In this document: positions 2,024-64,000 of the stretch, one piece after another
Layout of the letters: each line of letters starts with the position of its first letter
Position numbering within the stretch: the first letter of the stretch is position 1
Source of the DNA: Alphaproteobacteria bacterium
GTDB lineage: Bacteria; Pseudomonadota; Alphaproteobacteria; Rs-D84; CACZYB01
Direction: 5' to 3'
NCBI GenBank assembly: GCA_051885355.1
Contig: JBJEXC010000001.1
Coordinates: 14,359-78,358, forward strand
Length of the DNA: 64,000 nucleotides
Position numbers and translations under genes: made by a program
The notes under the pieces: generated by a model
Databases searched by the model: none
Told to the model about the DNA's origin: nothing
The model's input: the letters and a program-made list of their open reading frames with translations, nothing else

Positions 2024-2986
2024 ATGAAATTAAAAATCAAAAACTGTTTATCATTACCAATAATTATGCTTTTTGCCGTTGTTGGTTGCACATCGTCTGA
2101 TATAAATAATAACATTCCAGTTAATTCAAATGATCTTGTTGATACAAATGTTATATATAAAAGTGAAACTGTAAAGGTGGAAGTTGAAAATGCACCTGTT
2201 CATTCTTTGGATAAAAATATTGAAGAACATAACAAAGAAAACAAGGGTGATAACACAGTTAAAATAATTATTGCAGAAAAGGAAGAAGAAAAAATTGAAT
2301 CAGTAAATGAAATTCTTTCTACTGAAAATTTAAACGAGGAAGAAATTGCTGTAATTACACCTCCTCCTGCAAAGGAAGATGAAACAGTTTCTTTTGTAAA
2401 GTCTTCTTATGAGGATGAAAATTTTTATGAACCAGTTACAAGATTCGAATCTGATTTTGATAAGGCTGTAAGAGAAGCGGAGGAAAAACGCGGTATCAAA
2501 CCTGAACCAAAGCCTATGGCAGTTCGTCCATCACAACAAAGACGCTTTTCAAATATTAATAATGTAAATACTCCTAAAAAGGAGACTGTAAGAAAGTTTG
2601 ATATAAAAGAAGTTGAACCCCTTAAAAATATCACTTTTTTAAGTGCAATTATTTATCATTCAAATGGAAAGGCTGATATCTCTTCTGCGGATATGAAAGC
2701 AATTAAATCTGTTGCAAATTTTGTAAATAAGAATAATGCAACTGTTCGTATTATTGGAAATTCTTCAAGTCGTTCAAAAAATATGAAGGAAATAGAAAAC
2801 AAATTAACAAACTTTGATTTATCGATTCTTCGTGCAGAAAAAGTTCGTGATGCTTTAATTAAAAATGGTATTTCTGCGGATAAAATATTTATTGATGGTG
2901 TGGCTGATACTGAAAAAGTTGTTGAAGAAAATATGCCAATTAACGAAGCAATAAACAGAAGAACTGAAATTTATATAAATTATTAG
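2024..2986 (+). CDS. OmpA-family peptidoglycan-associated lipoprotein
   Basis: Signal peptide with lipobox VVGC. C-terminal OmpA-like domain with ...ILRAEKVRDAL... and NRRTEIYI (NRRVEI motif). Confidence 0.7.
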   Translation: MKLKIKNCLSLPIIMLFAVVGCTSSDINNNIPVNSNDLVDTNVIYKSETVKVEVENAPVHSLDKNIEEHNKENKGDNTVKIIIAEKEEEKIESVNEILSTENLNEEEIAVITPPPAKEDETVSFVKSSYEDENFYEPVTRFESDFDKAVREAEEKRGIKPEPKPMAVRPSQQRRFSNINNVNTPKKETVRKFDIKEVEPLKNITFLSAIIYHSNGKADISSADMKAIKSVANFVNKNNATVRIIGNSSSRSKNMKEIENKLTNFDLSILRAEKVRDALIKNGISADKIFIDGVADTEKVVEENMPINEAINRRTEIYINY

Positions 2987-2998
2987 TGTTATATTAAA

Positions 2999-3026
2999 AG
3001 GCAGTTTTTCAATCCTGCCTTTTTTT
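2999..3026 (+). terminator. Rho-independent terminator after the OmpA-like gene
   Basis: GGCAG-N10-CTGCC stem followed by T7. Confidence 0.6.
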
Positions 3027-3047
3027 AGATTATGAAGGATTTGTAAT

Positions 3048-4844
3048 ATGATTCCTGAGAGCGGGGAAAAAGAATTTATGACTGATGAAAATTCTTCACT
3101 TAATGGTTTTAGGTGGAGATTGTTTGATGCCGATGAACGATTCGTTCAAACGGTATGTCAGAAATATAATCTTCCAGATATTATTGCAAGAATTATAAAT
3201 TCACGAAAAATTACTTTTGAGGAAACGGAAACTTATATCTCTCCGCAAATAAAAAATTTGCTTCCATCTCCATTTATTTTAAAGGATATGGATAAGGCAG
3301 TTGAAAGAATTGTTCGTGCAATAGAAAGTGGCGAAGCAATAGGTATTTTTGGTGATTATGATGTTGATGGTGCTACCTCATCTGCAATACTATATAAATT
3401 TTTATATGATGTAGGCGTTAAGAATATTCAAATTTTTATTCCTGACAGACAGAATGATGGTTATGGATTAAATTCCGAGGGATTAAAAAAATTAATGAAT
3501 GCCGGTTGTTCTTTGGTTGTTGCGGTTGATTGTGGTATTACTGGATTTGATGCAGTAGATATGGCAAATCAAATGGATTTGGATATTGTAATTGCCGACC
3601 ATCATGAGGCAGAGGTTGGAATACCAAATGCAGTTGCAGTTGTCGATCCAAAACGTGTTGATGATGATTCTGGACTTACTTATCTGGCAGCATGTGGCGT
3701 AGTATTTTTGTTAACAGTAGCCATTAATAAAACTTTGCGTGAAAGAGGTTTTTATAAAAATAAAGGTATAGAGGAGCCGGATTTATTTTCTTATCTGGAT
3801 TTGGTCGCACTTGGAACTGTGTGCGATGTTGTGCCTCTTGTCGGGGTTAATCGTGCATTTGTTTCTGTGGGTGTAAAGGTTATGGCGCGTAGGCAGAATA
3901 TAGGACTTAAATCACTTTGCGATGTGTCTGGGGTAAGCACTTCTCCTTCTGTGTATCATTTAGGATATGTTTTAGGACCAAGAATAAATGCAGGTGGGCG
4001 AGTTGGAAATTCCAGTATTGCTGCGCAACTTTTAACAACTCGTAATCCATTAACAGCGGACAGCCTTGCCCAAAAATTAAATAATTTTAATTTGGAACGA
4101 AAGGATATTGAGGCATCTGTTTTAGAACAGGCATTTACAAAGGTTGCAAGTGAGATAAAACCTGATGATAATTTTATATTTATAAGTGGTAAAAATTGGC
4201 ATACCGGTGTTATAGGAATTATTGCTGGAAGGTTAAAGGAGCGATATAATCTTCCTACTTGTGTTGCAACAATTGATGATAATGGTGTTGCAAATGGAAG
4301 TGGAAGAAGTATTCCCGAAATTGATTTGGGAACTGCTATAATAAAGGCAAAAGAACTTGGTATTTTAACAGAAGGTGGCGGGCATTCTATGGCAGCGGGC
4401 TTTACTCTTCGTGTTGAAAAAATAGATGAATTTAAAAAATTCCTTCATGATTATATTGAATCATCAACAAAATCACAAAAAATTATTCCTGTATTAAAAA
4501 TAGATTCTGTGATTGACATTACTGGAATAAATGCTGATTTGGTAAAGAGACTTCAGATTTTGGAACCTTTTGGAACAGCAAATGAAGAACCTAGGTTTGC
4601 AATACTTAATGCTAAACTTACAGGAAGTGATGCGATAGGTGGCGGAAATATCAGGTGTTATTTTTCATCTGATAATGGAAAAAGCATTTCTGCAATTTGC
4701 TATAAATCTGTGGATACTCCTGTCGGTGAAGTGCTATTATCTGAAATAGGGGAGCGTTTCAAGTTGGCTGGAAAGATAAGGTCCAACAGTTGGAACGGTA
4801 AAAATTATATACAATTTATAATTGATGATATTGCAAAAATATAA
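3048..4844 (+). CDS. recJ: Single-stranded-DNA-specific exonuclease RecJ
   Basis: DHH family motifs GDYDVDGATS and IADHHE; DHHA1 C-terminal region (GGGHSMAAG); length 598 aa. Confidence 0.9.
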   Translation: MIPESGEKEFMTDENSSLNGFRWRLFDADERFVQTVCQKYNLPDIIARIINSRKITFEETETYISPQIKNLLPSPFILKDMDKAVERIVRAIESGEAIGIFGDYDVDGATSSAILYKFLYDVGVKNIQIFIPDRQNDGYGLNSEGLKKLMNAGCSLVVAVDCGITGFDAVDMANQMDLDIVIADHHEAEVGIPNAVAVVDPKRVDDDSGLTYLAACGVVFLLTVAINKTLRERGFYKNKGIEEPDLFSYLDLVALGTVCDVVPLVGVNRAFVSVGVKVMARRQNIGLKSLCDVSGVSTSPSVYHLGYVLGPRINAGGRVGNSSIAAQLLTTRNPLTADSLAQKLNNFNLERKDIEASVLEQAFTKVASEIKPDDNFIFISGKNWHTGVIGIIAGRLKERYNLPTCVATIDDNGVANGSGRSIPEIDLGTAIIKAKELGILTEGGGHSMAAGFTLRVEKIDEFKKFLHDYIESSTKSQKIIPVLKIDSVIDITGINADLVKRLQILEPFGTANEEPRFAILNAKLTGSDAIGGGNIRCYFSSDNGKSISAICYKSVDTPVGEVLLSEIGERFKLAGKIRSNSWNGKNYIQFIIDDIAKI

Positions 4845-9181: not shown

Positions 9182-10354
9182 TTATTTTTCGTAAATGCGA
9201 ACTTCATCAAACATTACATCATCAGTTCTCATTGTCAAAGCAACTCTTGATGCAGGAAGTCCCATTTCTGTTAATGTTGTCATAACATCCTTTACATTCT
9301 TTTTAATTGTGCCGTTTGATTTTCCTTGTGGAGCAACGCCAGATACTTCAAATGTAGCAGATGGGTTTCTTTCCAATACACGGCTTAAAGATTGATATAA
9401 AGGTTCTGCGAAATCAACAGATGATTTATCAAATTTTACTGTGATAATAGGTCTTGTCGATTTTGCAACTGGTGTTATATCAACAGGTGTAGAACTTGCA
9501 CGAGCAGGGCGAAGAGCAACTGCATCTCTGTTTTCAACCATCATAGGGGCACGAGGTGCTGGACGATGTGGTTGAGCAGATCTTGATTGCATACCATAAT
9601 CTTGTGCAGTTTCATTTATGAATGCTTCATAAGATTCGTCACTTGAAAACATTGAGCCACCATTTGCGAAGAAGTCAGTTGATGATGATGAACCATAAAG
9701 TTTTCCATTTTTAATGTTAAGTGCAACATCATTTAGGCTGAACTTTTCATTATCAACATAGGCTTGTTGTCTGTCTGCTTCTTGATTTAATTGACGAGCA
9801 AAAATTGAAATGTTTGAACCAATTTGTTTTGCTTCTTCTTCAAGAGCCTTTAATTGTTTATGGTCATCTTCTGTTGCACCACGGATTTTGTATGATGCTT
9901 GGATAGAACCAACCATATAATCAACCATTGATTGATCGGATTCTACATCTGCAACAAGTCTTTTTATATCAAAAGCAATGTTGTTGATTTTTTCAAGTTT
10001 TGCACGAGCATCTTTCCATTCATCCATAAGTTCAGGATTTCCAGGTGTTGTGCCAAGTTGCAATTTTGAATTGATTTGTGAAATTGCACTTCTGTAATCA
10101 GATACAGCAGTATTTGTTTCATTCCTCATTTGTTGAAGAGTATTTTTTCTTGAATCAACTACTGTTTTAAGTTGTTCTTGTTCTGCTTTGAAATTAGCAA
10201 TTTTATTTTTCATAAATGTGCCATCAAAAGCAGATGTTTGTTTTGCTTGTTTTGTTTCAGGCTTCTTATTATCACCAAAAAGTGTATCAGAAGTAGAAGA
10301 ACATGCACCCAAGATTACTATAGATAGTAATGTAAGTATGTTTTTTATTTTCAT
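9182..10354 (-). CDS. Coiled-coil lipoprotein (hypothetical)
   Basis: Signal peptide with lipobox ILGAC. Long predicted coiled-coil. Pro/Ala-rich segment (PHRPAPRAPMM). Terminator hairpin CTCCC-TTTC-GGGGG plus T8 immediately 3' (plus coordinates 9140-9170). Confidence 0.6.
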   Translation of the reverse strand: MKIKNILTLLSIVILGACSSTSDTLFGDNKKPETKQAKQTSAFDGTFMKNKIANFKAEQEQLKTVVDSRKNTLQQMRNETNTAVSDYRSAISQINSKLQLGTTPGNPELMDEWKDARAKLEKINNIAFDIKRLVADVESDQSMVDYMVGSIQASYKIRGATEDDHKQLKALEEEAKQIGSNISIFARQLNQEADRQQAYVDNEKFSLNDVALNIKNGKLYGSSSSTDFFANGGSMFSSDESYEAFINETAQDYGMQSRSAQPHRPAPRAPMMVENRDAVALRPARASSTPVDITPVAKSTRPIITVKFDKSSVDFAEPLYQSLSRVLERNPSATFEVSGVAPQGKSNGTIKKNVKDVMTTLTEMGLPASRVALTMRTDDVMFDEVRIYEK

Positions 10355-11167: not shown

Positions 11168-11241
11168 GGTCGGTTGGCAGAGAGGCTATGCAGAGGACTG
11201 CAAATCCTTGTACACTGGTTCGATTCCGGTACCGACCTCCA
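11168..11241 (+). tRNA. tRNA-Cys (GCA)
   Basis: Cloverleaf: acceptor GGTCGGT/ACCGACC, anticodon loop ACTGCAAAT (anticodon GCA), T-arm GGTTCGATTCC, discriminator T, encoded CCA. The track's ATG-started ORF at 11174 runs through it, so that start is spurious. Confidence 0.9.
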
Positions 11242-18435: not shown

Positions 18436-19620
18436 TTATCTATTTCTTGCTTGTGAAAGAGTAGCCAACTTTAGTCTCTCTTCATCACTTAACAATTTTT
18501 CAAATGCCTTTGTCGCATTCATTGGTAACTTGCCTGTTTCTCTATAATATTTTAAAATATCATTTTGTGTCGCAATATTTGATGGCACAGTCAATTCCCA
18601 ATTATAAAAGAATATATCAGAAAGAGGAGCACCCATTTCAGTTGCCTCTGGTGAAAAATTCATTTGTTCCCCAGTTGCAAGCATAAATTTTCTTTCTTCA
18701 ATTGCTTCATTTAATACAAAGTAATATTCACCAGCAGGGGAATTTACAACCATTTTTGTATCTTCTTCAAATATTTCGCCACTTTTTTCTTTTGCAATAA
18801 CTTTAAACAAAGGAGAGCGTTTATATTTACCGTCATCACCCTTGCCGTCATCAGACTTTGTTAAAAAAACAACAGCTTGATTTTCTTTTAATAAAGATTT
18901 TACAGTTTCATAAAATTTTTCAACTGGTTCAAAATCATTTTCACCCTTTGCATTTGTGAATGAACGAAGTCCATGAAATACTACAACACCATTATCTCCG
19001 TTTATTGCATCCATATAATCCTTTGCAGCGCGTTCAAATATTTCTGGTGTGTTTTCTTTCCAACCACCAAGACCGTCGGAAACACGACCACCAACAAACA
19101 TAGATAATTTTGCATTACGATTTATCTTTCTAATCATTTCTGAAACTGCTCTATTATCCTTTCTAAATGTCTGTGCTCTGTTTTGAAGTTCTTCCATTGA
19201 AGGAGTAGCAACAAAATCCGCTGGATAAGAAGTAATTTTCAAATCTGGATTGTTTTCTTTGAACTCATTTATCGCAACATTTGGCATAATAAGAGTAATT
19301 TTTTTCATATCCAAATCATTTGCATAATACTTATCAGAATTAAGTATAAATTGAATTTTATTTTCTTTATTTTTAATATCACTGTCTCTAAGTAAATCAT
19401 TAAAAATATCAATACCCATATCGCCTGCACTTATAATTTTAAGATTGCTTTGATGTGCCAAAGCATCTTTTACCTTTGCTTTTACATCTTTCATACTATC
19501 CTTTGATAAATCAAAAATAATATTTTCTGTATGCGTTGAAGCATTTACCAAAGAAGTCGCACTTGATGAATAACCTTTGTTCTTTTCAGAATTAATAATT
19601 CCAATTAAAGTTTCTTTCAT
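18436..19620 (-). CDS. Conserved hypothetical protein (394 aa)
   Basis: Long clean ORF convergent on and abutting the ABC-F stop. No diagnostic motif recognised (possibly ELM1/DUF1022-like; unverified). Confidence 0.5.
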   Translation of the reverse strand: MKETLIGIINSEKNKGYSSSATSLVNASTHTENIIFDLSKDSMKDVKAKVKDALAHQSNLKIISAGDMGIDIFNDLLRDSDIKNKENKIQFILNSDKYYANDLDMKKITLIMPNVAINEFKENNPDLKITSYPADFVATPSMEELQNRAQTFRKDNRAVSEMIRKINRNAKLSMFVGGRVSDGLGGWKENTPEIFERAAKDYMDAINGDNGVVVFHGLRSFTNAKGENDFEPVEKFYETVKSLLKENQAVVFLTKSDDGKGDDGKYKRSPLFKVIAKEKSGEIFEEDTKMVVNSPAGEYYFVLNEAIEERKFMLATGEQMNFSPEATEMGAPLSDIFFYNWELTVPSNIATQNDILKYYRETGKLPMNATKAFEKLLSDEERLKLATLSQARNR

Positions 19621-25097: not shown

Positions 25098-27224
25098 ATG
25101 AGAACAAGGAATGACATAGAAAAACATAAACACTCACAACCATTTTATCATTTAAAAGGGATAAAGTGTAATCTATTTATACTACTTGCCTATATCATAT
25201 TCTCTGTGCCTAATATCGCCACAGCCAAAAAGGTCAAACCTGCAAGAAAGCAAAATTTAAAACGCCAACAAATAAATTCACTAAAAACAATCCCCCAAAC
25301 CGATATTCCTACTAAAACACAAGATACACTCCCCCTTACAGAAACAGGAAACGACCTCTTACTAAAAATAAAGGAGGCGGAGGAGAAAAAAGAAGAAGAA
25401 AATAAAAAAGAACTTTTGCAAATCCTTAATGACAATATGATGAAAGTAAAGGACTCCTGCCTCGGTATAGAAAAGGATTTAAAGACCATCCAAGTATTAG
25501 CAGGAGTATCCACAGGAGCGAGCGGGTTGGGAACCCTTACCTCTGGCGGAGCATTGGTAAGCGGTATAGTGAAATCGGGAAAGGATAAGAAGATAGAGGA
25601 GAATAAAAAGGAGATACAAAAGAAACAGTTACAAATCAAGGTAATTAACGGAGAAAATAGACTTAATGAGATAGATGCACTTTTTGAAACATCAAAAAAT
25701 AGAAGAAAAAAAGATATAGAAGAATTTGCTCTAAAAAGGCAAGAAGTTATGAAAGAAGTTCCTTTATTGTATAGGAAATATAATGATACATTAAAAGAAT
25801 ATAAATCTTGTAAAGAAGATATTAATAAACAATTAGAAGATAATAACAATAATGAAGAATATAAAAAACTTTTTAATAGAAAAGAACAACTTCAAGAAAT
25901 AGCATATCAAAGATATAAAGAAAAACATTTAGATAATGAAGATCCTTATATAAAGGAAACCCAAATTTATATAGAAGAATTAAGTAAAGAAGAAAAAAAA
26001 GAATGGCAAGATATACAGTCCAAAAAATCTGTATTTGAAAAAGAAATATTTAATAAGAATATGACCTGTGAAACTCTTAAAGATAAAGCAGATGAAATAA
26101 GCAATAAAATGTATAACTTAGATAAAATATATATTGGTGCAGGAAATGGTATTATTCAATCATTTGGAGGAAGAAATTTTTTAAGACATTCTAATAATAC
26201 ATTTGCACAAGGTGTTTCAATGGATGGTAGATCCGATGTCACAAATAACTTATCTTCTGTTCTATATGTAGGGACATTACAGTATTATATGAAAACTCAA
26301 AAACAACTAAATCTTCCTGCTCTTGTAGGAGTTGAAGCTAATGATACAGATAAAATTCTTACAGAAGAGGAGCTTAATTCAATTGCATATCCAGAAGAAA
26401 CTTTTACTGATGTAGATTCTTATATAAATAGATATAAAACAACCCAATATGACGATAATGATAAAGAATATATGATAGAGCAAGCAACAACAGAAGTAGC
26501 ACCAATAGGAGAACTTAAAAAACTTCAAAGTTTGCATTTAGAAAAAACACAGATAGAAAATAATAAACAAGATTTACTTTACAATTATGATAATGCAGAA
26601 ATTTATACCACCCAAGAGGATAAAGACAGGCTTACAAGAGAAATTGGAAAACTTCATCGTGATAACGAAAAACTTAACAATACCTCTAAAACCCTAGGCA
26701 ATGTCAGAACAGGTCTTATGGCGGGAAGTATAGCCACCTCGGCTACCTCTACTATCACCTCCGGTATCAATATCAAAAAACTCGACGACCTCATAGATAA
26801 AATAAAATCCTGTAATGCCTCTATCAACTCCCTTAAAACTAACCTAAATAATGCTATGGCGGAGGGGGCTGATACAGACCTTACCCTTTATAAGAACATA
26901 GCGAATTCTTGTAATGACTTAGACAGTAATAATATAAAAGACATAAAGGGAGTAATGACAGCCTCAACTATTGTAGGTGGTATAGGAACAGCGACAAGTG
27001 TTGCAGGCACTATAACTTCAGCCCTTGCAAACACGGAAAAAGTTCGTAAAGATGACAGTGAGGAAGGGGTAAAGAAGGAGAAGGGATTGAATCTAGCCTC
27101 AAACATAATGGCAGGAGTAACGACAGGGACTAGTGCAGGAGGGATAGTGTTAGGAGCGGTGACACTTAAGAAACTGCAAGACAATGTGGATAGAGCTGAA
27201 AGATGTGAGAAAGTATTGAAATAA
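25098..27224 (+). CDS. Large secreted/surface coiled-coil protein with four glycine-zipper (small-residue) helices
   Basis: Signal peptide (LLAYIIFSVPNIATA). Long K/E-rich coiled-coil. Repeated G/S/T-rich helix motifs (LAGVSTGASGLGTLTSGGALVSGIV; IVGGIGTATSVAGTITSALA; MAGVTTGTSAGGIVLGAV). Confidence 0.6.
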   Translation: MRTRNDIEKHKHSQPFYHLKGIKCNLFILLAYIIFSVPNIATAKKVKPARKQNLKRQQINSLKTIPQTDIPTKTQDTLPLTETGNDLLLKIKEAEEKKEEENKKELLQILNDNMMKVKDSCLGIEKDLKTIQVLAGVSTGASGLGTLTSGGALVSGIVKSGKDKKIEENKKEIQKKQLQIKVINGENRLNEIDALFETSKNRRKKDIEEFALKRQEVMKEVPLLYRKYNDTLKEYKSCKEDINKQLEDNNNNEEYKKLFNRKEQLQEIAYQRYKEKHLDNEDPYIKETQIYIEELSKEEKKEWQDIQSKKSVFEKEIFNKNMTCETLKDKADEISNKMYNLDKIYIGAGNGIIQSFGGRNFLRHSNNTFAQGVSMDGRSDVTNNLSSVLYVGTLQYYMKTQKQLNLPALVGVEANDTDKILTEEELNSIAYPEETFTDVDSYINRYKTTQYDDNDKEYMIEQATTEVAPIGELKKLQSLHLEKTQIENNKQDLLYNYDNAEIYTTQEDKDRLTREIGKLHRDNEKLNNTSKTLGNVRTGLMAGSIATSATSTITSGINIKKLDDLIDKIKSCNASINSLKTNLNNAMAEGADTDLTLYKNIANSCNDLDSNNIKDIKGVMTASTIVGGIGTATSVAGTITSALANTEKVRKDDSEEGVKKEKGLNLASNIMAGVTTGTSAGGIVLGAVTLKKLQDNVDRAERCEKVLK

Positions 27225-33329: not shown

Positions 33330-33698
33330 TTATCTTGAAAATTCCTTTGAGCAATATGCACATTTTTCCCAGTAATCTTTGTATTTACAAGTTGCAGATT
33401 CTGTTCTAAATCTACATTCATCTGCTAAATCTCTATTGTGATTTTCACGAATGTTATAATATGAACTATTTTCCATTTCCATAGGTGAGTTATAGGAAAA
33501 TTCTTTACTACTTCTTCCATTTTTTATATTGTATCTTCCTTCCGCAAAACATTTTTTACAATATGAAGGAGGATTTCTTGAACCACATTCATTATTTTTG
33601 TATGGGCAATTATTTTTAAATTTAAAATAACTTTCCTCCTTGTAAATATTTCTACAAATTTTATTAATTTCATCCTCATTTAAAACTTCATTTGTCAT
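33330..33698 (-). CDS. Small Cys-rich zinc-ribbon-like protein (paralog 2, with extra C-terminal Cys cluster)
   Basis: RBS AAGGAG 7 nt upstream of ATG at 33698 (the track's longer start at 33764 would overlap tyrS). Shares the CP...CGS..P.S.C.KCF....Y..KNG.S block with paralog 1. Additional CxxC-like CAYC near the C-terminus. Confidence 0.55.
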   Translation of the reverse strand: MTNEVLNEDEINKICRNIYKEESYFKFKNNCPYKNNECGSRNPPSYCKKCFAEGRYNIKNGRSSKEFSYNSPMEMENSSYYNIRENHNRDLADECRFRTESATCKYKDYWEKCAYCSKEFSR

Positions 33699-33708
33699 AT
33701 TTTTCTCC

Positions 33709-34941
33709 TTAAACCCTAAGTATAGCCTTATTTTTCTTTCCAACAGAAAGCAAAATTTTGCCATCTTTTGCCATATCTTTTGTAATTACAAATTTATCAT
33801 CAGAAATTTTTTCATCATTCACAGATACAGCACCAGAAACAATCATACGCCTTGCATCACTTTTTGATTTACAAAGTGATACAGATACAAGCCCATCTAA
33901 AATATTTACATCACCGGCAAAGTCAAAGGTAGGAAGTCCCGCACCCATACCGCCATTTTCAAATGTTTCTTTTGCAGTTTTTTCTGCATTTAATGCTTCC
34001 TCTTCACCACGACAGATTTTTGTCGCCTCAAATGCAAGAATCTTTTTTGCCTCATTTATTTCTGCCCCTTGAAGATGCTCCAACTTCTCTATCTCACTAA
34101 TTGGAAGTTCTGTAAATATGCGAAGAAGTTTAGGCACATCTCTGTCATCAACATTGCGCCAGAATTGATAATACTCATACGAGCCAAGTTTATCCTCGTT
34201 AAGCCATACTGCATTTCCCATAGATTTTCCAAACTTTACCCCATTTGCATCAGTCAAAAGAGGTGCAGTCAATGCGAAAAGTTCCACTCCAAGTCTTCGT
34301 CCTAAATCAACACCCGAAACAATATTTCCCCATTGGTCCGCACCACCAAATTGTAAAATTGCACCATAGCGTTTGTTAATTTCCACAAAATCATACGCCT
34401 GAAAAAGCGAATAATTAAATTCCAAAAATGATAAAGGTTGCTCTCTATCCAAACGAAGTTTCACACTTTCGCGTTTAAGCATTTCATTAACAGAAAAATA
34501 ACGACCATATCGTGTTAAGAAATCTATATAAGATATATCCTTAAACCAATCGTAATTATTAACCATAATCGCATCGGTTTTTCCATCTCCAAAATTAAAA
34601 AATTTTTCCATAGATTTCTTAATACCTTGGATATTTTTTTGAAAAACCTCCTCCGTCATTATAGGGCGTTCACTTGATCTTCCCGAAGGATCACCAATTC
34701 TTCCAGTCGCCCCACCAACAAGGGCAATAGGCTTATTCCCTGTTTTTTGAAACAGTCTAAGTAAAGTAAGTGAAACCAAGTTTCCAATATGAAGACTGTC
34801 AGCAGTAGGATCACAACCCAAATATCCAACAACAGGATTTTTTTCACAAAGTTTTTTATCCAATCCTTCCAAATCACTTGCTTGATTAAAAAGTCCGCGT
34901 TCAATAATAATATTTAAAAAATCTGATTTTACTTTATACAT
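33709..34941 (-). CDS. tyrS: Tyrosine--tRNA ligase
   Basis: HIGH (SLHIGN) and KMSKS-like (KFGKS) motifs; C-terminal S4 domain; 410 aa. Confidence 0.95.
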   Translation of the reverse strand: MYKVKSDFLNIIIERGLFNQASDLEGLDKKLCEKNPVVGYLGCDPTADSLHIGNLVSLTLLRLFQKTGNKPIALVGGATGRIGDPSGRSSERPIMTEEVFQKNIQGIKKSMEKFFNFGDGKTDAIMVNNYDWFKDISYIDFLTRYGRYFSVNEMLKRESVKLRLDREQPLSFLEFNYSLFQAYDFVEINKRYGAILQFGGADQWGNIVSGVDLGRRLGVELFALTAPLLTDANGVKFGKSMGNAVWLNEDKLGSYEYYQFWRNVDDRDVPKLLRIFTELPISEIEKLEHLQGAEINEAKKILAFEATKICRGEEEALNAEKTAKETFENGGMGAGLPTFDFAGDVNILDGLVSVSLCKSKSDARRMIVSGAVSVNDEKISDDKFVITKDMAKDGKILLSVGKKNKAILRV

Positions 34942-35051
34942 TTTTTTCCTCTTATAATTAATAAAAAAATTTTACAAAATAAAAGTTACAAAGACAAGGA
35001 AATAATTTTTCTTGATAAAAGAGAAAAATCATATTATCATAAAAAATAGAT

Positions 35052-35410
35052 TTGCATTTCACTAATGCAAATTTAGTGTCCAGAGATGGATGCGGGACTG
35101 TCGAAAGTCCAATGAACACGCGCTACATATTCTCTTTGTGTAGTGAAAAGTGCTTCCCCAAGGAGTTGGGGAGTCTTTGGCGTATGTCCAGAGAGGTGTT
35201 CTCATCTCTTAAAGGCCAAAGAAGTCATCTCGTGTTTATGATTTTCGAACTCCCCGCCATTTCAAAGATACGAAATTGCAGACAATATTTTTGTGCTCAT
35301 AAAAGAGCAAAAGTATTCCTGCAAATATATTTTAATTGTGAATGGGAGGAAGTTTTTTTGTTCATGGTCTTCGCTTCCTCCCTCCCGATTAAAAAAAAGT
35401 ATTATGAAAG
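35052..35410 (+). ncRNA. GC-rich structured element of unknown identity (candidate ncRNA or leader); strand uncertain
   Basis: ~48% GC island in a ~30% GC genome. Multiple perfect hairpins (TTTGCAT/ATGCAAA; GGACU-GUCGAA-AGUCC; CCCCA-AGGAGU-UGGGG; UCUUUGGC...GCCAAAGA; GGGAGGAAG...CUUCCUCCC). The 224-aa ORF the track draws across it has no protein-like features. Confidence 0.3.
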
Positions 35411-35420
35411 GAGAAACAAT

Positions 35421-35726
35421 ATGAAAAGATTTTTTTTAATATCAACAATACCAATATTTCTGGTTTTATTTGAATATGATGCATTCCCATCATCATTGGA
35501 TACAGCCCTACAAAAATACTGCATTCCAAAAGATGCAACTTATTGCTCCAGTAGTTTTAGGGCAAGATATAATATTGCAAATGATAGATGTGATTGCGCG
35601 AACAATACTTACCTAGAATATGATGCTTCAAAAAGACATTGCAAAATAAAATGTCCAGCAGGAAGTTATCCAGCCATAATACCATCATGTTCGGCTGGGT
35701 CAGTAAAATTTTTAATTGCACAATAA
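35421..35726 (+). CDS. Small secreted Cys-rich protein with ephrin-receptor/TNFR-like Cys repeat
   Basis: Strong RBS AAAGGAG. Signal peptide MKRFFLISTIPIFLVLF. CDCANNTYLEYDASKRHCKIKCPAGSY repeat (CxC..NTY...C..CP.G.Y). Confidence 0.6.
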   Translation: MKRFFLISTIPIFLVLFEYDAFPSSLDTALQKYCIPKDATYCSSSFRARYNIANDRCDCANNTYLEYDASKRHCKIKCPAGSYPAIIPSCSAGSVKFLIAQ

Positions 35727-35746
35727 ATATAAATAAGGAGTGGAAA

Positions 35747-37069
35747 ATGAAAAATAAAACAAAAATATTAATTGCTTCAAGTATATTGGGGGGAATGTCA
35801 ATTCCAGTATATTCACAAATATATATGTGTAAAACATGCCCAGCAAATACTTATTCAAACGGAAGTCAATGTGTCCCATGCGGGCAATACCAATATTCAA
35901 ATGCAGGTTCTTCATCTTGCACAGATTTAAAATATCAGATAGAAAGCACGGTTGCAAGTTTAACAAAGGGAGGACAACAAACAGAAGGAACTTTAACCCC
36001 AGGATATTATGTAGTAATCCTTGGTGGTGGTAATGGTGGAGGAAGTCGAGACAACAAGTATATAGAGAACAATAGTGGATTACTTTCCTGGAATATTAAC
36101 AGCAATTTTAATATATTTAATGATAAATTTATGAAATTAAGTTGTGAAGAAGATGCAAGCGATGATGATTATTATTCATATACTAATATATTTCCAAAAA
36201 ATAAATATACTGTTCCTTATTCCAAAGCAGGTTTAGGGGCACAAATGCAATATGTTATAAAAGTTGATACAAATACCCCATATATTCTTGCATCTGGTGA
36301 AGATGGAAAAAGTGATGGCTCTGCATGTGGTGGTGGCGGTGGTTCCTGGTTAAAACTTGGTAATACCTATTATGTCGCTGGTGGCGGTGGAGGTGGTGTT
36401 AATATACATAACTATTCTAGGTATAGGAGTCCGGAAGGTGGTGCTGGTGGTGGTATCGGTGCCGGCGGTGGCGGTGGTGACCATTATAAAGGTTTAGTCG
36501 GTGCTGCAGGTGGAGCAAGTGGACATTACTCTGGTGGTGCTGGTGGTAGAGGTGATAGAGCAGGTGGAGTAGGTTCCGGTCCACAAGGAGGTCGAGGTGG
36601 TAATGTTGATAGAACAGCATCTTGTCATACAGCAGAAATTGAAGTTGCAAGTGGAAATCCTTATGGAGGTCTTGGTGGAGTAACATCAAGAGATAGTAAT
36701 TGTTCATCAACTATGTCAAAAATTAGTTTTAAATATCCAACATGTTCCAACTATGCTTCCTATAACAAAAATCTACCTGTAGAACGTACCGAAGAGTATG
36801 ATTGCGATAGTGATAATAATTGTTATTATAAATATTGTAATACATCATATTTTGGAACAGAAGTTTGTTCATTTAATGAGTATAGAGAGTATGACGACGA
36901 TGATGATATTGTTGCTAGATATTTAGCAAATTTATTCATTGCCTCTGAAGATACTTTCAGTAATTATATAAGAAATGGAGAAGATGGTAAAACATCACAT
37001 ACTTCTAATACAAATAAATTTAATAATCAATTGTGTAGGAACTGTGCAAAGATATTTAAAATAAAATAA
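35747..37069 (+). CDS. Secreted protein: N-terminal ephrin-receptor-like Cys repeat + long Gly-rich blocks + Cys/acidic C-terminal region
   Basis: RBS AAGGAG. Signal peptide. CKTCPANTYSNGSQCVPCGQYQYSNAGSSSC (paralogous to the previous gene). Gly-rich blocks (GYYVVILGGGNGGG, TYYVAGGGGGGV, GGAGGGIGAGGGGGD...GGAGGRGDRAGG). DDDDD stretch. Terminator follows. Confidence 0.7.
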   Translation: MKNKTKILIASSILGGMSIPVYSQIYMCKTCPANTYSNGSQCVPCGQYQYSNAGSSSCTDLKYQIESTVASLTKGGQQTEGTLTPGYYVVILGGGNGGGSRDNKYIENNSGLLSWNINSNFNIFNDKFMKLSCEEDASDDDYYSYTNIFPKNKYTVPYSKAGLGAQMQYVIKVDTNTPYILASGEDGKSDGSACGGGGGSWLKLGNTYYVAGGGGGGVNIHNYSRYRSPEGGAGGGIGAGGGGGDHYKGLVGAAGGASGHYSGGAGGRGDRAGGVGSGPQGGRGGNVDRTASCHTAEIEVASGNPYGGLGGVTSRDSNCSSTMSKISFKYPTCSNYASYNKNLPVERTEEYDCDSDNNCYYKYCNTSYFGTEVCSFNEYREYDDDDDIVARYLANLFIASEDTFSNYIRNGEDGKTSHTSNTNKFNNQLCRNCAKIFKIK

Positions 37070-37072
37070 AAA

Positions 37073-37110
37073 ATTCCCCCAGCCTTAAAACTGGGGGATA
37101 ATTTTTTTAT
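37073..37110. terminator. Bidirectional rho-independent terminator
   Basis: CCCCCAG-CCTTAAAA-CTGGGGG flanked by A- and T-runs, between convergent genes. Confidence 0.7.
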
Positions 37111-37118
37111 ATAAAAAG

Positions 37119-37442
37119 TTACATAGGTAAATCAACACCCTCTGGAAGTTGAAGCCCGCTTGTTGCCTCTTCCATAGTAGCAGTAGAAATCTCATCTGCT
37201 TGTTCCTTTGCATTATTCATTGCAGCAACAACCAAATCTTCCAATGTTTCTTTTTCACTTTCCTTTAACAAAGATGAATCAATTTCACATTTTTTAACAT
37301 CTTTTGTGCAAGTCATTGTTATTTTTACAAGCCCACCACCAGCATTGCCAACAACTTCTTGTTTTGCAAGTTCAGCCTGTGCAATTTTAACCTTGTTTTG
37401 CATTGCTTGTGCTTGTGCAACTAAATCATTTAAATTAACCAT
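37119..37442 (-). CDS. ybaB: Nucleoid-associated protein YbaB/EbfC
   Basis: Typical 107-aa YbaB sequence (MQNKV...GGGLVKITMTC...); immediately downstream of dnaX as in most bacteria. Confidence 0.9.
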   Translation of the reverse strand: MVNLNDLVAQAQAMQNKVKIAQAELAKQEVVGNAGGGLVKITMTCTKDVKKCEIDSSLLKESEKETLEDLVVAAMNNAKEQADEISTATMEEATSGLQLPEGVDLPM

Positions 37443-59653: not shown

Positions 59654-59754
59654 AATTACCTCATAATTTAAAAAAATTATATACTATAATAACAAAAAAT
59701 ACAAAGAAAATCTAAATATCTTGATTTTTAAGTAAAATTTATATATGATAAATA

Positions 59755-59845
59755 TCGAGGTTTGACGGACGGTATTATTTTTATACTGGGTCAGGTTCGG
59801 AAGAAAGCAGCCCCTAAATCTAACATCGGGTTGTCAAAACCTCAT
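59755..59845 (+). ncRNA. ffs: Signal recognition particle 4.5S RNA
   Basis: Terminal 10-bp helix GAGGUUUGAC/GUCAAAACCUC. Conserved domain IV core GGGUCAGGUUCGGAAGAAAGCAGCC (cf. E. coli GGUCAGGUCCGGAAGGAAGCAGCC). T-run after. Confidence 0.75.
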
Positions 59846-59848
59846 TTT

Positions 59849-60058
59849 TTATTTCAAATCTATATCAATAATAGACATATTAAAATCAAATGAAACCTCA
59901 TCATCATCAACATCACGATACAAAGTTCCAATAAATTCTGAATCAATATAAACCTCAGCCATATCTTCATCAGATTTAGAAGGCACAAGTTTAATTTTTT
60001 CATTTGAAAATTTGTTTTTTAAGTATTTTTCAACTTTAAGTAGTTCTTCGTTTTTCAT
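59849..60058 (-). CDS. DUF3126-family small protein
   Basis: ~70-aa alphaproteobacterial family pattern (KVEKYLKNKFSNEKIKLVP...AEVYIDSEFIGTLYRD). Confidence 0.55.
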   Translation of the reverse strand: MKNEELLKVEKYLKNKFSNEKIKLVPSKSDEDMAEVYIDSEFIGTLYRDVDDDEVSFDFNMSIIDIDLK

Positions 60059-60195: not shown

Positions 60196-61014
60196 ATGAA
60201 AATTTTATTTCTAGGTGATGTTGTTGGCAAAAGTGGAAGAAAAAAACTTTTTTCTCTTATTGATACAATTGTATCTAAGTTGAAAATAGATTTTACAATA
60301 GTAAATGCAGAAAATTCTGCACACGGTTTTGGTATCAATCCAGATATAGCCCAGAAATTTTTTATGTATAATATTGATGTGTTAACAACTGGCGACCATA
60401 TTTGGGACCAAATGACAATCAAACCTTATTTACAGGAGGAAGCAAGAATAATTCGCCCACTTAATTACAAAAAATATAATGATGGCAATGGATATAAAAT
60501 TTATACATCAAAAAATGGTAAAAAAATTTTAGTGGTAAATCTTCTCGGAACTCTTTTTATGATGAGAGAGGATATTGAAAACCCATTCTTAACAATGAAT
60601 AACTTATTAAATGATTATAAGTTAGGTCAAAATGTCGATGCAATTTTTGTTGATTTCCATGCAGAAGCAACATCCGAAAAAATGTCGCTTGCCCATTTTC
60701 TTGACGGTCGTGTAACAGCAGTAATTGGCACCCATACACATATACCAACATCTGATAATCATATACTTCCAAACGGAACTGCTTTCCAATCTGATGCAGG
60801 TATGTGTGGCGACTTTAACTCATCAATTGGTATGAAAACAGATGTTTCAATTTCAAGATTTTTAGGTGAGGGGGAACATACCCACCTTTGCCCAGCCGAA
60901 GGTGAAGCAACCCTTTGCGGTGTAATAATTGAAACAGATGATAAAACTGGACTTGCAAAAAATATTGAACCTTTAAGAGTTGGTGGAATACTTCCTCAAA
61001 CACATAAACTATAA
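60196..61014 (+). CDS. YmdB-like metallophosphoesterase (TIGR00282)
   Basis: MKILFLGDVVGKSGR N-terminus and GDH / GTHTH metal-binding motifs. Confidence 0.8.
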   Translation: MKILFLGDVVGKSGRKKLFSLIDTIVSKLKIDFTIVNAENSAHGFGINPDIAQKFFMYNIDVLTTGDHIWDQMTIKPYLQEEARIIRPLNYKKYNDGNGYKIYTSKNGKKILVVNLLGTLFMMREDIENPFLTMNNLLNDYKLGQNVDAIFVDFHAEATSEKMSLAHFLDGRVTAVIGTHTHIPTSDNHILPNGTAFQSDAGMCGDFNSSIGMKTDVSISRFLGEGEHTHLCPAEGEATLCGVIIETDDKTGLAKNIEPLRVGGILPQTHKL

Positions 61015-62174
61015 TGAAAAATTCGTATGAAATAAAAAGATTGGTTTTAACAAACTTTCGCTCTTATGATAAATTAAAAATAGATTGCGAAGGTATCAAA
61101 AATATTATAATTACCGGAGAAAACGGCGCTGGTAAAACTAATATTTTAGAGGCTATATCAATGCTTTCTATTTCCGGACCATTCAGAAAGGCAAAACTTT
61201 CCCAACTTGGTAAAATTAATAGCGATAACAAAGTATTTACAATTTCATCTCAACTTTTAACAGGAAACGATTCGCACACTCTTGGCATTTCCTATAATTA
61301 CAAAAATAAAGATGAATTTACCCAAGATGATTTTGAAGAAACAATAGAAAAAAGAATGATTGTTGCAAATGAAAATAATATCCAAGCCCAAGATTTACAA
61401 AACTTTGTAAAAATTATTTGGATAACTCCATTTATGGATAGACTTTTTTCAGAGGCAACTGGCGAACGCAGAAAATTTCTGGATAACCTTATATCAAACT
61501 TTTATCCATTTTATGGAACTTCTCTTAACCAATATAATAACCTTTTAAAACAACGCTCCAAAATTTTAAAGGGAAAAAACAGCGACCTAAATTGGCTTTC
61601 AAGTATAGAGGAGGAAATAGTCTCTCTCGGTGTCAGCATTGCTGATTTACGATTAGAATTCGAAGAAAAATTAAATAAAATCCTAAGTGAGAGAAAGACC
61701 AACTTCCCCCACATACAAATTACAATTACCGGCTTGATAGAAGATAAACTTCGCACACATAAAGCTGTAGAGGTAGAGGACTTTTTCAAACAAACCTTAA
61801 TCGCAAATCGTGAACTCTTTAAATATAACTTTTCCCCACCAGTAGAAGGTATCCACCGTTCCGATTTTACCGCATACAACCTTGATAAATTTATATCCGC
61901 CGACCAAACTTCAACTGGTGAACAAAAATGCACAGTCATTTCAATAATCCTTGCCTATGCAAATTTACTTTACCTTTATTTTGATAAATATCCAATTATT
62001 TTAATAGATGAGGCTCCCGCCCACCTTGATGATTTAAAATTACAAAGGTTGTTTGAGGAACTTGAAAATATCCCAACACAAATCTGGTTCACAGGTATAA
62101 TAAAGGACGATTTTAAATATTTTGAAAATAAAACATCCCTCTTCTTACATATAGAAAACAGCAAACTAAAATAA
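61014..62174 (+). CDS. recF: DNA replication and repair protein RecF
   Basis: Walker A GENGAGKTNILEAI, signature and Walker B (ILIDEAPAHLD); start overlaps the preceding stop (ATAATGA). Confidence 0.85.
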   Translation: MKNSYEIKRLVLTNFRSYDKLKIDCEGIKNIIITGENGAGKTNILEAISMLSISGPFRKAKLSQLGKINSDNKVFTISSQLLTGNDSHTLGISYNYKNKDEFTQDDFEETIEKRMIVANENNIQAQDLQNFVKIIWITPFMDRLFSEATGERRKFLDNLISNFYPFYGTSLNQYNNLLKQRSKILKGKNSDLNWLSSIEEEIVSLGVSIADLRLEFEEKLNKILSERKTNFPHIQITITGLIEDKLRTHKAVEVEDFFKQTLIANRELFKYNFSPPVEGIHRSDFTAYNLDKFISADQTSTGEQKCTVISIILAYANLLYLYFDKYPIILIDEAPAHLDDLKLQRLFEELENIPTQIWFTGIIKDDFKYFENKTSLFLHIENSKLK

Positions 62175-62230: not shown

Positions 62231-64000
62231 ATGACATTTTTAAAAAATGTTTTTGAAGATAGATATCAAGGAGAACATCATAAGGCAGCCCGCTGGCTTA
62301 TGATAGCCTATATTATTTTTACCCTTATTATGTGGGCAATTTTAATAATGATTTTCCCTATCACTTATTGGATAAACAGTGGATTTGATAATGCTGTATT
62401 TCAATCTCCAGAAGTAAAAAACTATTTTACACAAATTGTAAATACAAAGGGATTTTATGTAATATTTGCTTATTACCATTGGGTATTGGATTTTGTGGCA
62501 AGACGAACATCTACCGTTATCCCAGCAATCCCACTTATGGCAATTCCTGTATTGCTTGTTGTATTGGAAAATAAAAATCCACATGAAGTTACATCAACTC
62601 CTGATGCTTATTCAAAGCATGCAAACGAAGAAATATTAAAGAAAATGAAGGTATGGGATGGTTTTATTGTAGTCCTCGGTAAATTTAAAAAAAGATTTTT
62701 AAAACTGGGTGAAACATTATCTGTGCTTGTATGTGCTCCACCTGGAACTGGTAAAACAGTAGGTATAGTTATTCCAACAATTTTTGAATGTGATACAGTA
62801 AGTATGATTGTCAACGATCCAAAACCTGAACTTTGCTATATCACAAGTGGTTACCGTGCAAAAATTGGTCCAGTATTTATTATGAATTGGGGAAGGGAAG
62901 ATGATCCAGAAAACGGCATCTACTACCCAAGTTGGAATCCTTTGTCCCCAGGAATTATCCCACCACAGGGACCAGATAGGGATATGTATGTCGACAGTAT
63001 GGTAAATGTTTTTGTGCAGGACCCTGCCGGTTCTTCTGCTGACCCACACTGGTCAAAAACTGGTCGAAATGCTTTAACAGGACTTATTCAATACATAGTT
63101 TCAAAATGTGAACGCGCAACCGCAAGTGATTACTTTTATTCCAAACTTTCAAATAATACCTTTAACGCAAATGATGCTTATATGTTAGAGGGTTATTATA
63201 TGGATATGAATGATAATTATGCAATGGGTGCCTTAACTCTTCTTCGTGAAGGAAAACTTACAAAGGATAATTATGTTCCCGTTGGCACATGGAGTGAAAT
63301 TCCAAAAAATTGGGTTGGTCGTGAAGCAAGTATTCCAATGCTTCTTGATTGGCTAAATGAATCACAAGTTGAAATTGCTGAGGCTATAAGAAAAAGAAAG
63401 GAAGAGGGGGATCAAATGGCATCACTTGCTGACCCTATGAAAGAAATGCTTGAAAATGCAGTAACAGAGGCACGTCGTTATGGATATGCTCACCGCGCAT
63501 CTCTTGAACTTACTCAACTTGCAAATACACCGGATAAGGAAAGAGGTTCCATTCTTTCCACTGCGCTAAGTGGTATTTCAATTTTCAAAAACCAAGCCGT
63601 CCGACAAAGAACTTCACACAGTGATTTTTCTTTCAAGGATTTGCGTGGAATGGTTGATCCAAATGATGGCAAAATTAAACCTGTTACAGTCTATCTTTCC
63701 GTTAACCAAACTGATGCTCGTGCCTTAAATGTTATTACAGGTGTGTTTGTTGAACTTATGTCAAATTACTTCATTTCAAATCCTCCAAATAAAGTTATAA
63801 ATACAAAAACTGGTGAAAAGGTTGGTCCTTATCCAATTTTATTTGTGCTTGATGAGTTCCCTCAAATGCCAAAACTTAATGCCGTCATTGATGGTCCTGC
63901 GGTTGGTCGTGGTCAAAAGGTTTCATATCTTCTTATTGCACAAGATTTGGGACAAATAGAGGCCGGCTATGGTCGTGAGCATGTTGAAACCTTAATGTCA
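62231..64000 (+). CDS. virD4: Type IV secretion coupling protein VirD4/TraG (3'-truncated by window end)
   Basis: RBS AAAGGAAG. N-terminal TM helices. Walker A VLVCAPPGTGKTVGIVIPT. Walker B ILFVLDEFPQMPKL. Open to the window edge; absent from the ORF track only because it has no stop. Confidence 0.8.
   Translation, partial: MTFLKNVFEDRYQGEHHKAARWLMIAYIIFTLIMWAILIMIFPITYWINSGFDNAVFQSPEVKNYFTQIVNTKGFYVIFAYYHWVLDFVARRTSTVIPAIPLMAIPVLLVVLENKNPHEVTSTPDAYSKHANEEILKKMKVWDGFIVVLGKFKKRFLKLGETLSVLVCAPPGTGKTVGIVIPTIFECDTVSMIVNDPKPELCYITSGYRAKIGPVFIMNWGREDDPENGIYYPSWNPLSPGIIPPQGPDRDMYVDSMVNVFVQDPAGSSADPHWSKTGRNALTGLIQYIVSKCERATASDYFYSKLSNNTFNANDAYMLEGYYMDMNDNYAMGALTLLREGKLTKDNYVPVGTWSEIPKNWVGREASIPMLLDWLNESQVEIAEAIRKRKEEGDQMASLADPMKEMLENAVTEARRYGYAHRASLELTQLANTPDKERGSILSTALSGISIFKNQAVRQRTSHSDFSFKDLRGMVDPNDGKIKPVTVYLSVNQTDARALNVITGVFVELMSNYFISNPPNKVINTKTGEKVGPYPILFVLDEFPQMPKLNAVIDGPAVGRGQKVSYLLIAQDLGQIEAGYGREHVETLMS

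Follow-up and report, generated by a model that had tools for sequence, protein, structure and literature searches.

What does a bacterium do with a tandem of genes whose products combine cysteine-rich repeats with long runs of glycine? Two such genes, here called A and B, exactly fill positions 35421-37069 of the 64,000-nucleotide stretch of alphaproteobacterial DNA that we analysed at its full length (contig JBJEXC010000001.1 of assembly GCA_051885355.1; the window). They are co-oriented, encode proteins of 101 and 440 amino acids (aa), and are separated by 20 nt. As modelled, the pair is a new architecture built from two known kinds of domain, TNFR/ephrin-like Cys repeats and a glycine-rich domain of the ALK/LTK type. 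We consider that B is probably a binding or recognition protein that works with A as its small partner, and place the probability of this at roughly 0.55. B is read as a binding module because the characterised members of its predicted fold bind: ALK binds its ALKAL cytokines, and the fibre tips of phages Pam3 and S16 bind host receptors. The two genes and the segments of B are listed here, with the confidence of the AlphaFold2 (AF2) model given as the predicted local distance difference test (pLDDT).

35421-35726 (+): gene A, from open reading frame (ORF) and translation; 101 aa; product identical to NCBI ACI4N3_00250.
35747-37069 (+): gene B; 440 aa; product identical to NCBI ACI4N3_00255.
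35747-35815 (+): gene B residues 1-23, signal-like sequence MKNKTKILIASSILGGMSIPVYS; aligns with homologue N-termini ending ...A↓Q-V-Y-x-C; pLDDT <50.
35816-35923 (+): gene B residues 24-59, Cys module C28-x2-C31-x10-C42-x2-C45-x12-C58; one double repeat, ephrin-receptor-like/TNFR-like.
35924-36046 (+): gene B residues 60-100, predicted first beta-strands of a TNF-like sandwich and first Gly motif (GTLTPGYYVVILGGGNGG); pLDDT 93-98.
36047-36226 (+): gene B residues 101-160, insertion 1; Asn/Asp/Tyr-rich, mostly absent from homologues; pLDDT 37-55.
36227-36751 (+): gene B residues 161-335, glycine-rich core; 29% Gly, about 10 Gly-rich motifs including GGGGGSW, AGGGGGG and GAGGGGG.
36752-36946 (+): gene B residues 336-400, insertion 2; variable Cys/Asp-rich segment, differing in length and sequence among homologues; pLDDT 44-76.
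36947-37069 (+): gene B residues 401-440, C-terminus NGEDGKTSHTSNT..LCRNCAKIFKIK with the stop codon; conserved down to the most distant relatives.

Comparison of B with ALK and LTK was prompted by its glycine motifs (GTLTPGFY.IILGGG.GG, GGGGGSW..G.TYYVAGGGGG, GG.GGGIG.GGGGG and NG.DGK). Glycine makes up 15.9% of the protein as a whole and 29% of residues 160-335; there are runs of G5, G6 and G5, and 16 Cys. The AF2 model, made from a 22-sequence alignment, has a mean pLDDT of 74 with 177 residues at 90 or above, and confidence is low in the signal peptide and in both insertions. Strands at 65-93, 166-211, 404-409 and 433-439 lie on either side of Gly-rich stretches. These are placed with confidence, but DSSP assigns them neither helix nor strand, which is the way polyglycine-II segments appear. 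The modelled protein has the arrangement by which this fold is recognised, in which extended Gly-rich segments form a lattice that is interwoven with a TNF-like beta-sandwich. Residues 60-100 supply strands 65-72, 78-83 and 86-93, and the Gly motif there is the most conserved of the family. The C-terminus, with the consensus NG.DGK.SH.SNT...LC.NCAK.YKIK, is both conserved and modelled at a pLDDT of ~96 as strands 404-409 and 433-439, and so belongs to the fold and is not a free tail. Insertion 1 includes ~39-47 residues that have no counterpart in the alignment with the four closest homologues. The original prediction, made from the bare sequence, had described extended Gly-rich blocks and a Cys/Asp-rich tail in the longer protein. 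The blocks are borne out and additionally form the predicted ALK/LTK-type domain, where they appear to be part of a confidently predicted fold and not low-complexity filler. The Cys/Asp-rich segment is real as well (residues 336-405; 16 D/E, 4 Cys), but it is an internal insertion followed by a conserved strand.

In structure comparison of the B model the ALK/LTK glycine-rich domain ranks first, followed by the Pam3 fibre (7.1), Bxb1 gp33 (7.1) and Bxb1 gp29 (6.4), with the next match at 4.1. The top 17 Foldseek matches are all LTK or ALK, bar one Bxb1 chain, and structural alignment gives 21-23% identity to ALK. The structures used to train the AF2 weights predate the ALK entries, and the predicted fold should therefore be independent of the latter. 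Sequence profiles point in the same direction. In a search of 1.84 billion cluster representatives, the profile made from the family's Gly core matches residues 548-786 of a distant relative, P0031, with a library-wide E of 1.7e-4, and this is the region of P0031 that matches the Pfam family PF12810 (ALK_LTK_GRD) above threshold (3.9e-11). The match to P0031 scores 49.4 bits. Sequences shuffled globally or locally (600 in all) scored no higher than 8.4 and the reversed one -24, and the match is therefore not explained by glycine content. Only two of the 32 proteins scanned match PF12810 at E up to 1, the identified one being P0031, and B itself does not match it even at E up to 10. Because B fails PF12810, and because HMMER searches do not provide a link to ALK, B is best regarded as a divergent relative of the ALK/LTK domain and not as a member of the Pfam family. 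Another family member, P0013, aligns to positions 17-223 of 226, and hence nearly the whole, of PF21722 (Gly_rich_2), below threshold (E 0.011; 16.2 bits against 24.3), whereas B has no match to this profile. We found no mention in the literature of PF12810 or PF21722 in bacteria.

The second domain of B is the Cys repeat. Judged by sequence, it belongs to the ephrin-receptor-like/TNFR-like class, and this is statistically visible at the family level only. Its spacing follows that of the class (CxxC, ~10-12, CxxC, ~12, C, with a G.Y/NTY motif), the CxxC-x10-12 element being that of the repeats of Ephrin_rec_like, ELAPOR1, Mst1, TNFRSF21, the calcium-sensing receptor (CaSR) and TAS1R, and it aligns residue for residue with one ELAPOR1 repeat at 53% identity over 34 aa. 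The best Pfam match of B is to PF23091 (TNFR_ELAPOR1_6th), with 17.6 bits against a cut-off of 33.2 (E 0.0037), followed by NCD3G (0.032); B does not match PF07699 (Ephrin_rec_like), and A has no Pfam match at all. Homologues of B carry from 1 to >10 such repeats, and 17 of the 32 members of the large family match PF07699 (best 2.9e-22). Among solved chains, the 22-sequence family profile matches the Chlamydomonas mastigoneme protein Mst1 (3.9e-28), ELAPOR1 (6e-8), TNFRSF21 (2e-5) and the Cys-rich domain of CaSR (3e-4). Foldseek gives local matches of the N-terminal module of B to the Cys-rich domains of ELAPOR1, TAS1R and 4-1BB, with probabilities of 0.77-0.98 but E >1.

A carries a degenerate form of the repeat, C57-x-C59..C74-x3-C78-x11-C90. 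Pairwise similarity between A and B is not significant (BLASTP E 0.35; hhalign 7 columns). When families are compared, however, a profile of nine partner sequences matches the large-protein profile with an hhalign probability of 95.6% and an E of 1.2e-8, and three of nine relatives of gene A match PF07699 at E up to 1 (best 1.2e-5). The Cys module that A and B were originally predicted to share is thus upheld by family profiles and not by direct comparison of the two proteins; the Pfam/HMMER check proposed at the same time likewise leaves the window proteins below threshold while their relatives pass PF07699. Compared with ELAPOR1, Mst1 and TNFR-type proteins, B has just one double repeat and A a degenerate one and a half; the repeats here precede a glycine-rich domain in what appears to be an exported bacterial protein.

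It has been shown that the extracellular regions of ALK and LTK contain epidermal growth factor (EGF)-like, glycine-rich and TNF-like parts and that their ligands are small disulfide-bonded proteins (PMC10605310). We compared B with the structures of ALK and LTK (PDB 7nx3, 7ls0, 7lrz and 7nx1) and of C. elegans SCD-2 (7lir). Unlike these receptors, B has no EGF-like domain, transmembrane helix or kinase and ends 40 residues after the Gly core; it has instead a bacterial signal-like peptide, TNFR-like Cys repeats ahead of the glycine-rich domain and two additional inserted loops. On the model, then, B has one domain in common with ALK without being an ALK receptor. The partner A also differs from the ALK/LTK ligand, being a Cys-rich protein of beta-hairpins in its model, whereas ALKAL is helical. 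The phage tips compared were those of cyanophage Pam3 (gp24; 7ypx), mycobacteriophage Bxb1 (gp33 and gp29; 9d93) and Salmonella phage S16 (gp38). In glycine-rich phage fibre tips a conserved Gly scaffold bears variable loops, and a co-encoded helper protein is needed (PMC9608196; PMC13243192). B resembles them in its predicted conserved Gly scaffold carrying variable loops and in its co-encoded small protein. It differs in having no phage context and no trimerising N-terminal helix, with a Sec-type signal and Cys repeats in that position, and gene A is unrelated to the phage fibre chaperones.

The association of the two genes is well conserved. A word-index search with gene A returned only itself, and its homologues were identified by reading the neighbourhoods of gene B homologues. 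In 11 of the 12 gene copies examined, a homologue of gene A lies directly upstream of the large gene (window, L002, L004, L006, L011 twice, L012, L014, L016, L018/L019 and L020; the partner in L016 is an ORF missed by the gene caller). The neighbourhoods of these pairs differ, with tyrS/ybaB in the window and bactofilin/dnaA, secD/gatA, def-fmt, uvrA or recG elsewhere, so that it is the pair itself which is conserved and not a larger island. Partner genes encode proteins of 92-133 aa that are 27-45% identical to A and share a signal peptide and the motifs L..L.KYCVP, CxC, R.C..CP.G and C..G. A profile search for the partner found 24 family members, including a second in the genome from which the window comes (P0060, ACI4N3_02660).

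In A itself, residues ~1-24 are signal-like and the mature part has 7 Cys (34, 42, 57, 59, 74, 78 and 90). The AF2 model (pLDDT 80) has a helix at 23-32 followed by beta-hairpins, and Foldseek found no fold match for it in the Protein Data Bank (PDB; all E >3, probability <0.07). Cys34 and Cys57 (codons at 35520-35522 and 35589-35591) covary perfectly over 23 partner proteins, 14 with C/C, 9 with G/P and none mixed, which predicts a disulfide between them. Short-form partners, with 7 Cys, and four of the closer homologues of B have odd numbers of Cys, which may hint at an intermolecular bond between A and B, but B of the window has 16 and other pairs disagree. In L011 two tandem copies of the pair are separated by a Slam-type gene (2897-4342; PF04575, surface lipoprotein assembly modulator), and in L014 a DsbA-like gene (1505-2335) lies just upstream of it. 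Each is a single case, and they are possibly relevant to export and disulfide formation.

The family as a whole is rather likely to be a small, rare group found in low-GC bacterial metagenome-assembled genomes and, where traceable, in vole faeces. A word-index search with B found 4 close homologues only, and the full profile search found 29 clusters at E <=0.001 among the 1.84 billion representatives. Three loci were found in 185,579 species genomes and one fragment in JGI metagenomes. No relatives were found in 2.9 million viral contigs, in 50,697 phage genomes or plasmids (both by tblastn), or in PHROGs. Every family member traced is on a bacterial contig, and all 12 gene copies examined have bacterial neighbours. 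Only two samples could be identified; these two runs with relatives are prairie-vole faecal metagenomes. Judged by name alone, further records may come from rumen and from rodent gut. We note that one genome with three copies of the large gene (L004, L006 and L016) is labelled 'uncultured Bacteroidales bacterium' (GCA_964530355.1). The L012 contig (GCA_944390685.1), whose SecD and GatA share 81-88% identity with those of this genome, encodes a Mitofilin-family protein, a family typical of Alphaproteobacteria; the Bacteroidales label thus probably reflects an error of binning or labelling.

We infer from their N-termini and cysteines that A and B are exported through Sec and folded with disulfides outside the cytoplasm. 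Both N-termini read as Sec signals, with a K/R-rich start followed by a hydrophobic stretch; B was also considered as a lipoprotein, an identity that was rejected as it has no lipobox. B would leave the cytoplasm via Sec, fold outside and come to lie in the periplasm, on the cell surface or in the medium, and would consist of a signal peptide, the double ephrin-receptor/TNFR-like Cys repeat, and a TNF-like sandwich with Gly lattice (the TG fold) bearing two lineage-specific loop insertions. The inserted loops, which vary, would be displayed to a target on the conserved Gly scaffold. A would be a co-exported, disulfide-rich partner of ~75 residues that carries a degenerate copy of the same Cys repeat. 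It would most likely bind B, as a subunit or ligand or by helping it to fold or assemble. The two genes would on balance form an operon. An antifreeze-type function was also considered and was rejected as the identified samples are from gut.

Several observations weigh against this reading. The case for an ALK-type fold rests on prediction, and the Foldseek statistics that accompany it are weak (E 0.02-0.7; TM-scores 0.22-0.34). Searches of PDB sequences with the family profiles or with the glycine-rich region of P0031 never returned ALK or LTK, and Pfam and NCBIfam scans of A and B gave nothing above threshold. The signal peptidase site of A is poor and is placed from the alignment only, and nothing observed indicates how B would cross the outer membrane. 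Pairing also has an exception: P0017, an 808-aa paralogue in the genome from which the window comes, has an SH3-domain gene upstream and no partner. In this paralogue (ACI4N3_00675; L010 721-3147) a long N-terminal region is basic and rich in Ala, and Cys repeats are numerous.

Among alternative explanations, the one that survives best is that A is a dedicated folding or assembly chaperone for B, comparable to tail-fibre chaperones, and is outside the mature functional unit. The strict pairing in 11 of 12 copies would be expected of such a chaperone. However, A lies upstream, is Cys-rich and has its own signal sequence; for its model no matching fold was found, among fibre chaperones or elsewhere, and its sequence has no PHROG match. 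The Cys repeat common to A and B is a better fit to a structural subunit or ligand, and we regard the chaperone as unlikely.

The original prediction had gone further in another direction, proposing that in an obligate intracellular bacterium with a type IV coupling protein the pair are candidates for host mimicry or effectors and possibly came from a eukaryotic host. In its fuller form this reading has an intracellular bacterium secrete them, possibly through its type IV system, to engage ephrin-, TNFR- or ALK-type pathways of the host. Both kinds of domain are indeed best known from eukaryotic surface proteins (Mst1, ELAPOR1, TNFR and CaSR for the repeat, with ALK/LTK the top structural match for the glycine-rich domain), and the identifiable samples are animal-associated. 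The type IV coupling protein seen in the window is also there, a VirD4/TraG-type gene at 62231-64000 (+) (PF02534, 9.3e-42; also TraG-D_C and TrwB_AAD_bind) which is cut by the window end and follows a RecF-like gene at 61014-62174. A link between it and the pair is unlikely. Coupling-protein substrates are recruited from the cytoplasm, whereas Sec-type signals together with 7 and 16 Cys suggest an oxidising compartment; moreover, the coupling-protein gene is 25 kb from the pair, and no other type IV genes were found among the ~40 ORFs scanned with Pfam (all of at least 500 aa and part of the shorter ones). A C-terminal type IV signal in B was considered and rejected, as the basic C-terminus is predicted to be a buried strand (pLDDT ~96) and offers no free secretion tail. 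Nor does the window, whose genes include those for peptidoglycan, lipopolysaccharide, repair and glycolysis, demonstrate an intracellular lifestyle.

Recent acquisition from a eukaryote finds no support. Genes A and B have a GC content of 32-36% in a window of 31.5% GC, and a third-position GC content (GC3) of 16-18% against 21-26% in seven reference genes; this composition is host-like and therefore native. All 12 copies have bacterial neighbours, as described above, paralogues occur within genomes, the fold is also present in phages, and one PF12810 member has a lipoprotein-like N-terminus. An ancient transfer of the domain, in either direction, may have taken place. The idea of host mimicry or effectors is consequently weakened rather than refuted, in that the outcome named beforehand as refuting it (no significant profile match to eukaryotic Cys-rich repeat families, with homologues in free-living bacteria only) did not occur; we consider it improbable. 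A domesticated phage receptor-binding module, whether a tailocin-like or prophage remnant or an anti-phage decoy, would account for the likeness to fibre tips but is highly improbable, given that there are no relatives in viral contigs, phage genomes, plasmids or PHROGs, that the neighbours are housekeeping genes (tyrS, ybaB, dnaX, PBP5), that a Sec signal and Cys repeats replace the N-terminal baseplate-docking helix, and that there are no convincing flanking repeats.

We therefore return to B as a recognition protein with A as its partner. A more specific and decidedly speculative form of this proposal is that A docks on the TNF-like/Gly domain of B, as ALKAL does on ALK or TNFR on TNF, and that ALK and the phage tips share ancestry with an older bacterial recognition module which had a dedicated partner. 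On the solution of its structure in 2021, the ALK/LTK glycine-rich domain was reportedly noted as unusual in fold, and to our knowledge it has since been seen mainly in a few phage fibre tips. The present family would be a cellular bacterial version of this domain, and as such may offer a tractable system for the folding and binding of polyglycine-II lattices and a data point on the origin of the metazoan ALK ligand-binding domain. It would also provide a candidate surface or secreted recognition protein of poorly known gut, possibly rumen, bacteria. The interest of the pair lies chiefly in the biology and evolution of the polyglycine-II fold, the function of B as binding or adhesion being argued by analogy.

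The arrangement and signals of the locus are in keeping with the original description of tandem genes with ribosome-binding sites and signal-like N-termini, the coordinates of which are exact. The signals are the following.

35409-35413 (+): gene A ribosome-binding site AGGAG, separated from the ATG by 7 nt; evident from the sequence.
35735-35740 (+): gene B ribosome-binding site AAGGAG, separated from the ATG by 6 nt; evident from the sequence.
35012-35040 (+): sigma-70-like promoter candidate TTGATA, 17 nt, TATCAT; 10/12 matches; in the 480-bp gap 5' of gene A.
37075-37098 (both strands): bidirectional intrinsic terminator; 24-nt G+C-rich hairpin with 6 G-C pairs, 8-10 pairs in all depending on strand, and T-runs on both strands.

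The terminator is single, lies 3' of gene B and is common to the convergent gene ybaB. The promoter candidate is weak evidence, as it is a consensus match only and sites of similar quality are numerous in the region (20 observed against 12.6 expected). Housekeeping genes flank the pair (tyrS, ybaB, dnaX, a PBP5-type carboxypeptidase gene, tmk and holB), and a search of the window found no additional copies of it. On both sides of the two-gene cassette there are AT-rich imperfect direct repeats (34967-35020 and 37087-37126; 73-74% identity), which in a genome of ~31% GC are probably due to chance.

Some other features of the window may be noted. Just upstream of the pair, on the other strand, a Cys-rich ORF of 144 aa (33330-33764, -) lacks both a signal peptide and a Pfam match; as it shares 56 nt with the 3' end of tyrS, its true start may be the internal Met at residue 23. 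An ORF of 708 aa (25098-27224, +), also without a Pfam match, has an N-terminal hydrophobic segment, a long Lys/Glu-rich coiled-coil-like region and four Gly/Ser/Thr-rich hydrophobic segments, such as GVSTGASGLGTLTSGGALVSG, and could encode an envelope or secreted protein. For two ORFs of ~390 aa (9182-10354, -, and 18436-19620, -), Pfam gives no match at E up to 0.01. Two RNA genes, and no others, were detected in the window: those for the small signal recognition particle RNA (59754-59849, +; Rfam RF00169, 53 bits) and tRNA-Cys (GCA) (11168-11241, +).

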